Positions 36,001 through 39,000 of a stretch of DNA of 45,637 nt are shown piece by piece. Position numbers: made by a program. The DNA is from a virus (Duplodnaviria > Heunggongvirae > Uroviricota > Caudoviricetes). Every line of letters begins with the position of its first letter. Positions within the stretch are counted from its first letter, which is position 1. Where the stretch lies: positions 1 to 45,637 of the IMG/VR virus record IMGVR_UViG_2529292910_000009. One strand, 5' to 3'.

Positions 36001-39000
36001 TGAGGAGGATAGATGGCGTTCACTGACCTTGAATATCAAGCGGTCAAAAAAGAAGTTCACCAATTCATTGAAAGCATAAGGCCGCCTGAACATATCCGCA
36101 ATGAACTGGATATTGTTTATAGCATCAATGACCAAACGATAGATATCGGCGAACAGCGCCCCGTGTGGCAGGGCAACCCAGGTGAAACAAACATCCTGCC
36201 ATCAGCAAGAATCAAGTACATACGTTCTCTGGATAGATGGAAAATCTATTGGATGCGGAAGGATATGAAATGGCATCAGTACAGTACTGAACTTTCGCTG
36301 ACTGATGCGCTTGAGCTTGTGCGTGCTGACCCGGATTGCTGCTTCTTCGGATGAGTGAAGAGACGTTTGGATGATGGATGGTCGCAGAGATGCGGCCTGA
36401 TTCTAAAATAGGATATAAAAAATGAGAATACTAGGTGTTAGAGCGGCGCCCAAAGTTACATCTTTTGTTGTATATTGCACTAATGAGTCTGCACTCAAAT
36501 GTGTTGATGTTATTAAAATACCTTCGACCTTAGACACACCAGAAAAATTAAAGTATGTGAGAAATAACATCCTCGACATTCTTAATTTATATAATGTTGA
36601 ATTAGCTGCCATACGCGTTACTGAATCAAACTCTGATAATCTTAGCATTGACCGCCTTTATATAGAAGCTGTTATTCAAGAAGCATTTTCAAGCAGTGAT
36701 GTAAGAAAATATTACACTATTAGAAAATCTGGCATGAAATCATCATTGAACCTAACAGAGATCGAGTATAAAGAAATATTGAAGTCACACCGCAATATAA
36801 ATGGAATCGATAATTCTGGTTTTACAACTGAAACAAATGAAGCTGTTTTGGCTGCTCTATCTGCGGAGGTAAGGGGATGCTAACTCCATACAAAAGAGCT
36901 GATGTAGAATTCGAATGGATTAGTGATCTAGAAGAACAGGGTTGTTTTTCAAAAGTATATCTGGCTCATGACAGACACCTAGCTCATGACTTGGTGATTA
37001 AAGAAATAGAAAAAAAAGAAACACTAACCACGACGACTACTTTAATGAAGCAAGGCTTCTCTATAAACATGCACATCCAAATATTGTGCAAGTTCAGTAT
37101 GCTGCTCAATGTGAGAGCAATATCTATATAGCCATGCCATTTTATCATAATGGTTCGCTAAACCAATTAATGAAAAAAAATAATCTTACAAGCAGGGAGA
37201 TAATACGGTATTCCATTCAATTTTTAAGTGGACTTTATCATATACACTCAAAAGGTCTTATGCATTTTGATATAAAACCTAATAACATTATGATATCAAA
37301 CAGAAATGAGGCCATGCTATCTGACTTTGGATTATCTCAGTTAGTCAATGAGGAATCGAGAGCTGCGCCTGAGTTTGGATATCATTTTCATGTGCCACCG
37401 GAATATTTTTCTTTATCAACAAATGATTATAATTTCACATATGACATATATCAGGCAGGATTAACCATATATAGAATGTGTGTTGGACATGATAATTTTG
37501 AAAGAGAAAGATCTGCATTTAGCACGATTGAACAACTCAGAGAGTCGATAATTAATGGCTGCTATCCATTAAAAGAGTATCCTCCCCATATACATAAAAA
37601 ATTAATAACAATAGTGAACAAATGCATTCATGTAGATCCAAATGAAAGATATCAATCCGTACTAGATGTACTAAACGATCTCTCAGCTATAAGTGATGGC
37701 GTTCTTGACTGGCGTCTACAGATGACGAAACCAACTAACGGCACATGCGAATGGCAAAAAAAGTCTGGGGACGCTATACTGTCTATAGTTTTTGACGCAG
37801 AAAATTCGTCTACTACTGGTTTTCGTTTATACGATGATGGGCGGAAAAGGCGTGCTACGAACTTAACAATATCCTCAGGATGTACCCCTACAAAACTGTA
37901 TAGGTTATTAAAGGATAACTGATCATGAAAAAGCGCGAGGAAGTAAGCAAGCTGCCTCGCAGACGTGATGCAGCATTAGCGGTTCCCTACAAAAAAGATG
38001 AGTTCATAAGCCCTTCTGATGACAAAAAATTTTCAAAGGCGAAAAGTTTTACATCTACATCTCTAAAAGATAAATACTTTAAAATCTAGCCCGGCCTCAG
38101 CGCCGGGTTTTCTTTGCCTCACGATCCCCCACCTAAAAAAACATAACTCATTGTATTTATTGATGTAACTCGCTAAACCATGCAGTTCTGATCCCTGCCG
38201 CATAACCTTCATCAGCCACATTTTCAAAAATAAATTTCCTTATATATCAGAATCATACTTCGTAGAGTTAATAAATCACCAAAATTCGTACAAATAGTTC
38301 TTAATAATGTCGAACTATTGGTTCATTATTATCGTCATCAGCAGGACGCATTACTCACCAGGGCGGTGAATATACAACGATTCGAATATGAATCTACGGC
38401 GCTGACAAAGCGCAATAACCAAAGTGAACTTTGGGGTGTGGTGAAGGGTTCATGGACGGGAATATGTCGCACGTAAAGCGGCGAGGCCTGTGGGACTATT
38501 GCCGAATTGAAGTAGGCCGAAACAGGTCGAAATGGGTCTCCCACCTACCACACCACCAAAGTTCATCAGGAGGTCTATATGACACGCAGAACTCAGTTCA
38601 AAGGCAATTCACGTTCTCGTCGTCGTGAGCGTTTAAAGGCAAAGGCATTAGCTAACTGCGTACTGGCCCGCGAAGAAGCAATAAGTTCAGAAGTATTACA
38701 CCGCCCTACTCTAAGCAGAGCGCAGATTCAGGCTAAAGGTACTCACGAAACGCCTGAGCGCATAGAAGACGCTAAGCCAATTAAGTTCATGGCACAGGAC
38801 GTGATCTGGCAACAGAAAGAATACAGACGCAATCTGGAGCGAGCAGCCATTGTGTACGCGAATGAGTTTGGACATAAGCAACCAGAAACTGGTGTATGTC
38901 TTCCAAACGTAGCCATTTACGCGGCAGGCTACCGGAAATCAAAACAACTGACGGCGAGGTGATTGATGACCACGCCTTCAGTTTTGCCGCAAAAGTTATG

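Follow-up and report, generated by a model that had tools for sequence, protein, structure and literature searches.

The closest described counterpart of the gene examined here is stk of Shiga-toxin phage 933W. In published accounts (PMC3681748, PMC3564112 and PMC6356687, which cite Friedman et al. 2011 and Tyler et al. 2004), Stk is presented as a eukaryote-like tyrosine kinase that is expressed from the prophage, where its gene is cotranscribed with cI. According to these accounts, it shows little activity when cells are uninfected and becomes activated by infection with HK97, leading to abortive infection. Exclusion of HK97 and tyrosine phosphorylation in response to phage are reported for 933W (Friedman et al. 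2011, as cited in the same accounts). The same gene was found in a 45,637-nucleotide (nt) stretch of DNA from a virus of the Caudoviricetes (IMG/VR record IMGVR_UViG_2529292910_000009, positions 1 to 45,637), the whole of which is referred to here as the window. The window DNA is the same as that of 933W stk, which encodes a protein of 348 amino acids (aa; NP_049482.1), except for one deleted A, and it lies in the same operon with the same terminator, tM. The window copy is frameshifted at codon 49 and cannot encode the kinase as written. We lean towards reading the missing A as a homopolymer-length error of assembly, in which case the real phage would carry an ordinary intact stk.

Identity of the kinase gene

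Direct alignment of 933W stk with positions 36877–37922 of the window gave identity at 1046 of 1047 nt, the sole difference being the missing A. Because there is only this one-base difference over 1047 nt, the gene is 933W stk (ST933Wp22) itself, beyond a mere stk-like relative. It is already characterised, a known gene at a known place. When positions 36400–38100 were used in a megablast search of phage genomes, 39 records were matched, every one at ≥99 % identity. The best matches listed include 933W, Stx2 phage 86, phi24B and Stx2 converting phage I, each aligning 1701 bases of the window with 1702 bases of the record.

The 933W record is annotated with the order pM-cI-DUF3024-RuvC-like-stk-orf54-tM, followed by nutL and N. 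The order in the window (cI, DUF3024 gene, RuvC-like open reading frame (ORF), stk, orf54, terminator, N) is that of 933W, with stk in the cI maintenance operon upstream of tM and pL/N, and the protein products of cI, the RuvC-like ORF and the 54-aa ORF are identical between the two. A preliminary description of the window, made from the sequence alone, had placed an stk-like kinase in the cI operon at the rexAB position and linked it to the stk of 933W. Both the position and the link were right, stk being the fourth gene of the cI-DUF3024-RuvC-like-stk-orf54 operon that is terminated by tM.

Position of the missing base

Runs of A are denoted here by their length, so that A8 is a run of eight. 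Where the intact gene has GAAATAG-A8-G-A4-CACTAACC, the window has GAAATAG-A8-G-A3-CACTAACC. The parts of stk in the window, all on the plus strand, are as follows.

36877..37131, plus strand: 5′ stk fragment, an ORF of 84 aa made up of codons 1–48 of authentic Stk and then 36 out-of-frame codons ending at TAG
37010..37017, plus strand: first A8 run, of wild-type length (A8 in both the window and 933W) and the only plausible slippage site
37019..37021, plus strand: the lesion, A3 where the intact gene has A4, a 1-nt deletion at stk nt 146 in codon 49, placed by alignment to 933W stk
37022..37922, plus strand: 3′ stk remainder in the −1 frame, with the helix C Glu, HFDIKPNN, SDFG and the C-terminal region, and DNA identical to 933W
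37173..37180, plus strand: second A8 run within stk, unbroken in the window and altered by −1 or +1 in other assemblies

The preliminary description correctly reported eight A residues at 37010–37017 and took the gene to be split at that run. This is not where the lesion lies, as the A8 run is wild-type and alignment to 933W puts the missing A in the A4 run that follows it. A nine-A run had been put forward as the repaired allele, with the suggestion that reads showing A9 would mean an intact kinase. Both refer to the wrong run, the real difference being A4 to A3. An A9 repair restores the frame but introduces the change E48R, giving ...IEKKRNTNH... where the authentic protein has ...IEKKENTNH.... 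The joined kinase had been estimated at about 345 aa; authentic Stk is 348 aa and reads ...VIKEIEKKENTNHDDYFNEARLL....

Reading frames and kinase motifs

Both ORFs given in the preliminary description were found, 36877..37131 encoding 84 aa and 37086..37922 encoding 278 aa. The 84-aa product starts MLTPYKRADVEFEWISDLEEQGCFSKVYLAHDRHLAHDLVIKEIEKKE, and its authentic part includes the Gly loop at G22–Y28 (GCFSKVY) and the β3 Lys K42 (LVIKEI). The downstream ORF is a mechanical call from a GTG start at 37086, with an in-frame ATG at 37134. As had been described, its frame is open from 37002, a TAA occupying 36999–37001, and it reads ...RNTNHDDYFNEARLLYKHAHPNIV.... This frame is −1 relative to the upstream one, and one base added anywhere in the overlap 37002–37128 joins the two.

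The kinase motifs that had been listed (GCFSKVY, VIK within LVIKEI, FNEARLL, HPNIV, HFDIKPNN and SDFG) are all encoded in the DNA, in the frames to which they had been assigned. As written they are not on one polypeptide, since the frameshift at codon 49 leaves the Gly loop and K42 on one side and E58, the catalytic loop and the DFG motif on the other, and a single polypeptide with the full set is obtained only after the addition of one base. A search with the joined protein, which the preliminary description had proposed as a check on the assignment, bore it out. The repaired (933W) Stk matches Pfam PF00069 (Pkinase) at 158.8 bits, against a cut-off of 31.7 bits, over residues 21–260 and profile positions 9–253 of 263, and it matches PK_Tyr_Ser-Thr at 101.9 bits, again over residues 21–260. 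Judged by these matches, the repaired protein is clearly a Hanks-type kinase. The 278-aa fragment alone scored 118.4 bits with Pkinase, covering profile positions 65–253 only, and the 84-aa fragment alone gave no match in the Pfam search.

Translation of the downstream frame could begin at the GTG at 37086, for which no ribosome-binding site is obvious, or at the ATG at 37134, which lies 3 nt past the first stop and whose product corresponds to a 262-aa protein annotated on 35 contigs. The established catalytic requirements of Hanks-type kinases include the Gly loop, the β3 Lys and the helix C Glu. The product from either start lacks the Gly loop, K42 and the helix C Glu E58, and because these are missing both would be expected to be catalytically dead. 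Taken literally, with neither a downstream product nor the 84-aa peptide predicted to be active, the window would encode no active kinase.

Both pieces are nonetheless open, and the placement of the ATG so close behind the first stop makes termination-reinitiation conceivable, so that the two ORFs could be imagined as a functional split kinase in which an N-lobe peptide and a C-lobe protein assemble in trans. This was rejected because the first piece holds only 48 authentic residues, without helix C and strands β4–β5. The arrangement is also private to the window, and comparable splits in relatives all amount to a simple ±1 indel or the insertion of an insertion sequence (IS) in an otherwise intact gene. 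We give a split kinase virtually no credence.

Distribution of the window allele

When 5426 complete Escherichia coli genomes were searched with a 71-nt junction query, stk was found in 225 records from 224 genomes, and none of the 225 was identical to the window allele (A8-G-A3). The exact wild-type 72-mer was present in 217 of them, so that at most eight differ. An exact 45-mer carrying the window allele gave no match in IMG/VR and none among the GTDB species representatives; the general tract pattern also had no match in the GTDB representatives, and that collection is therefore uninformative. In IMG/VR the general tract pattern found 33 loci, in frame in 31 and shifted in two. Intact Stk is present on at least 1000 contigs, and an exact look-up of the 84-aa product among about 15 billion proteins found nothing. 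A programmed arrangement would be shared by relatives. As the allele is private to the window, the frameshift is, on the evidence of these sequence collections, neither conserved nor programmed.

The preliminary description had left open inactivation, mis-sequencing or expression by slippage. A frameshift of this kind could be tolerated or exploited if a low level of full-length kinase were made by slippage, or if the A tracts served as a phase-variable ON/OFF switch, and we regard this as improbable. Slippage could proceed in transcription, with RNA polymerase inserting an extra A into the A8 run, or in translation, with ribosomes shifting by −1 on A_AAA_AAA (37011–37017). By reading of the sequence, each of these would bring the gene exactly back into frame, yielding Stk E48R. 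The heptamer is in the right frame, and a Shine–Dalgarno-like GGTGAT hexamer, a weak element, lies 12 nt upstream of it. Insertions of a single A into transcripts at A/T runs are known in E. coli, their frequency growing exponentially with run length, up to 9 (PMC5574713).

However, the wild-type gene, already in frame, has no need of recoding, and no other sequence has been seen with the window allele, the shifted arrangement being unconserved; because of these two points slippage rescue would be at most incidental. No frameshift-stimulating stem-loop was found 5–9 nt downstream of the A8 slippery site, the first small hairpin lying about 29 nt downstream, so that there is no hairpin at the canonical spacing. 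The A8 run is also below the length of about 9 nt, not 8, at which selection against slippery runs becomes visible in bacterial coding regions, and the rescue at A8 in one human example was about 10 % (PMC1088944). Traverse and Ochman saw no instance in which a reading frame was restored by an error in the transcript (PMC5574713). Rescue by slippage at the A8 run is conceivable as incidental leakiness, not as a designed mechanism.

Other disrupted copies of stk

Lesions in stk were surveyed in ten loci of the 278-aa downstream product, which is found on 35 contigs, in two frameshifted complete genomes and in the IMG/VR loci; individual loci are given by their L numbers. The first A8 run was shortened to A7 in nine loci (L003, L006–L012 and L041), in at least two different cI/cro backgrounds, and lengthened to A9 in L005. 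The second A8 run (37173–37180) had lost one base (A7) in E. coli O157 strain Z1814, where the gene is annotated as ‘frameshifted’, and gained one in L037. A 1-nt deletion at the equivalent of 37057 was seen in L013. In one complete E. coli genome (L004, positions 2014–3837, GenBank accession number CP170308.1), IS1 lies between the N-terminal 62 codons of stk and the 278-aa remainder, an independent disruption that is impossible as a homopolymer error. NCBI labels such broken copies as pseudogenes, either ‘frameshifted’ or ‘incomplete’. A few per cent of the public copies of stk are disrupted, mostly at the two A8 runs, which may reflect either biology or sequencing noise.

Some of the loci with altered tracts carry homopolymer indels in neighbouring genes as well. 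A 1-nt deletion in the A7 run of cI (equivalent of 35526), which splits cI into 97 and about 136 aa, was found in L005 and L012, and a 1-nt deletion in the A6 run of the DUF3024 gene (equivalent of 36045) was found in L012 and L041. As L005, L012 and L041 have these further indels, part of the apparent variation in the stk tracts is probably sequencing noise.

Recurrent length variants of both A8 runs in public assemblies would also suit a slipped-strand ON/OFF switch built from the A tracts of stk (A8-G-A4 at codons 45–49 and the second A8 at codons 99–102), which would turn a costly abortive-infection kinase off and on in lysogen populations, with leaky rescue of OFF alleles through slippage at the A8 run and with the window as one OFF variant. 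However, in an stk allele that differs at 24–25 of 1047 positions the second A8 is interrupted by single-nucleotide polymorphisms at stk nt 303 and 305, and the tract is therefore unconserved. The variant tract lengths are confined to a few per cent of loci and are explicable by errors together with sporadic mutation. We consider such a switch very doubtful.

The lesions elsewhere also bear on the possibility that the deletion in the window is a genuine and recent loss-of-function mutation, the prophage being a decaying stx-less element of 933W immunity, perhaps in a mismatch-repair-deficient lineage. This corresponds to the inactivation proposed in the preliminary description and remains a live rival, although we incline against it. 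The independent lesions listed above (A8 to A7, A8 to A9, ±1 at the second A8, the 37057 deletion and IS1) are in keeping with genuine loss, as are the truncated 278-aa and 262-aa products, each present on 35 contigs. However, the lesion in the window falls in a four-base run, though replication slippage strongly prefers the neighbouring eight-base run, and some of the apparently natural alleles come from the assemblies with other homopolymer indels (L005, L012 and L041) and are likely to be partly artefact.

Further private indels in the window

The window was compared with 49 fetched loci. Close relatives cover the 45-kilobase (kb) mosaic only in parts, and the count of private substitutions is limited to 3.05 kb. 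Private indels were found in the following further genes.

15647–16203, minus strand: gp38-like ‘receptor recognizing protein’ gene (tail-fibre accessory), interrupted at 15930, where a T run has a private 1-nt deletion, leaving ORFs of 107 and 68 aa
22739–24649, minus strand: SASA-family carbohydrate esterase gene downstream of Q, split into 197/113/308 aa by a private −1/+1 homopolymer pair at 23694 and 24136, 442 nt apart

Around 15930, 701 nt of the window aligned at 99.9 % identity with 702 nt in three complete E. coli genomes, the deletion being the sole difference, and no database record was identical to the window over this gp38-like region. A 651-nt stretch of the esterase gene was 99.7 % identical to at least 12 records, including O104:H4 outbreak genomes, and again no record was identical to the window. 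When this stretch was aligned with the prophage of E. coli SCPM-O-B-9427 (L049), two gaps accounted for every difference. Counting the deletion in stk, the private frameshifting indels number four, against no private substitution, over 3.05 kb that are otherwise identical to database genomes.

In mutation accumulation in E. coli, substitutions outnumber indels several-fold, even in mismatch-repair mutants. Because the pattern in the window consists of indels only, set against this substitution-dominated spectrum, an error in the consensus is favoured, and for a genuine mutation four private indels with no substitution in 3.05 kb would be an unexpected outcome. Among the options of the preliminary description, mis-sequencing thus gains from the three further private indels, while designed slippage is disfavoured, the allele being private. 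In our judgement the missing A in stk is somewhat more probably a homopolymer-length error of assembly than anything else. The true phage would then have an intact stk in its usual operon slot, with the change from A4 to A3 introduced as an assembly error. A literal translation of the assembled sequence would give the 84-aa peptide, which has the Gly loop and the β3 lysine only.

Several observations weigh against this. All six 8-mers of A or T in the window look correctly called, among them the two A8 runs of stk, where errors would be expected most. This speaks against a crude homopolymer error process and for a genuine mutation, and a homopolymer would seldom be miscalled in a run as short as A4. 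Two substitutions in the pL/nutL region, at 38292 and 38303, are absent from all 34 of the fetched loci covering those positions, so that errors added to an otherwise exact copy do not fully account for the window. Some stk lesions in nature may also be genuine, as with the IS1 in L004 and the A7 allele that is common to several Illumina-derived assemblies. Finally, three genes broken in one prophage fit a degrading element, from which a costly abortive-infection kinase, a tail-fibre accessory gene and an esterase would all have been lost.

If the missing base is an assembly error, the window contains an ordinary intact copy of a characterised defence gene and the finding becomes a quality flag for a sequence with at least four frameshifting homopolymer indels, in which pseudogene calls are untrustworthy. 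If the deletion is real, the lysogen would still be immune via cI and HK97-type phages would no longer be excluded via Stk, making this a further example of a prophage shedding a dispensable abortive-infection gene.

The cI operon and the prophage

The remaining genes of the operon and its terminator are given below.

35245..35952, plus strand: cI repressor, 235 aa, first gene of the operon, which is expressed in the lysogen; protein identical to 933W cI
36013..36354, plus strand: DUF3024 gene, 113 aa, second gene of the operon (Pfam PF11225, 108.7 bits)
36422..36883, plus strand: RuvC-like ORF, 153 aa, with a stop that overlaps the start codon of stk; protein identical to 933W ST933Wp23, annotated as a RuvC-like resolvase
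37925..38089, plus strand: 54-aa ORF, last gene of the operon, protein identical to 933W ST933Wp21
38088–38119, plus strand: intrinsic terminator with an 8-base-pair GC-rich stem and a T-rich tail, found by a terminator scan, its hairpin and T tail being placed at 38088–38109; the counterpart of tM, which is annotated equivalently in 933W

Over its whole length, the product of the DUF3024 gene matched PDC-S43, a phage defence candidate of PADLOC (E 7e-42). Because the match is full length, the DUF3024 gene may be a second defence-related cargo gene beside stk in the cI operon. The product of the RuvC-like ORF had no match in the Pfam search, and that of the 54-aa ORF had no family match in Pfam or PADLOC searches. 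Beyond the operon, the length of an intergenic A7 run at 38141, between tM and nutL, varies, being A6 in 28 of 41 loci.

In the SCPM-O-B-9427 prophage (L049, positions 11698–13764), which is closely related and has a different cI, the slot 3′ of cI is occupied by genes for a hypothetical protein and a DUF1828 protein. These are unrelated to, and in place of, the DUF3024, RuvC-like, stk and orf54 genes of the window (cI operon, 35245–38089). To judge from this replacement, the position downstream of cI looks like a swappable cargo slot. The window also shows compensating 1-nt differences from SCPM-O-B-9427 at 28376 and 28601, within the RelE/ParE-HigA toxin-antitoxin region at 28244–28636. There the broken copy may be that of SCPM-O-B-9427, with its shorter 68-aa toxin, rather than that of the window.

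The ends of the prophage were compared using L048 and L047. In strain cM8a, positions 1–1024 of the window align beside ynfF and a truncated ynfG/dmsB-like (4Fe-4S) gene, and the right end (45300–45637) stops just short of the integrase seen in ES5. As the left end adjoins this ynfF/ynfG-like gene and the right end stops before the integrase, the window has the look of an almost complete short-tailed prophage of the 933W type, located at the ynfG site. No Shiga toxin gene was annotated in the matching region of the closest fetched E. coli genome relatives.

Comparison with known systems

The likeness to 933W is confined to part of the element, the window prophage being a different mosaic outside the immunity region. 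The other broken stk alleles in public sequences resemble that of the window in being indels of one base within the A-rich 5′ third of the gene, or IS1, and in leaving the same 278-aa downstream ORF. They differ in that their lesions are in the A8 runs, at 37057 or due to IS1, and none has the A8-G-A3 arrangement of the window.

Among the PADLOC models, repaired Stk matched mad6 of the MADS system (E 6.7e-50), aligning to model positions 61–337 of 659, which is the kinase domain only, and it matched many models of PD-T4-6 (best E 1e-37), again through the kinase domain only. Stk thus belongs to the broad class of Hanks-type kinases that are listed as anti-phage defence proteins, with matches confined to the kinase domain.

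The known slippage-rescued poly(A) frameshifts, in endosymbiont genes, IS elements and Shigella mxiE (PMC1088944, PMC5574713), have a parallel in stk in that its A8 run lies in the overlap of the two frames and one added A restores the frame. There, relatives share the shifted arrangement and the runs are usually no shorter than 9 nt, whereas in stk a single sequence has the arrangement and the long run is not the site of the DNA lesion. Finally, rexA and rexB of phage lambda occupy the same slot downstream of cI on the transcript of the maintenance promoter and have the same general role, the exclusion of other phages by a prophage (PMC3564112, PMC6356687). The proteins and the mechanism are unrelated to those of stk, and the likeness between the two is one of position only.

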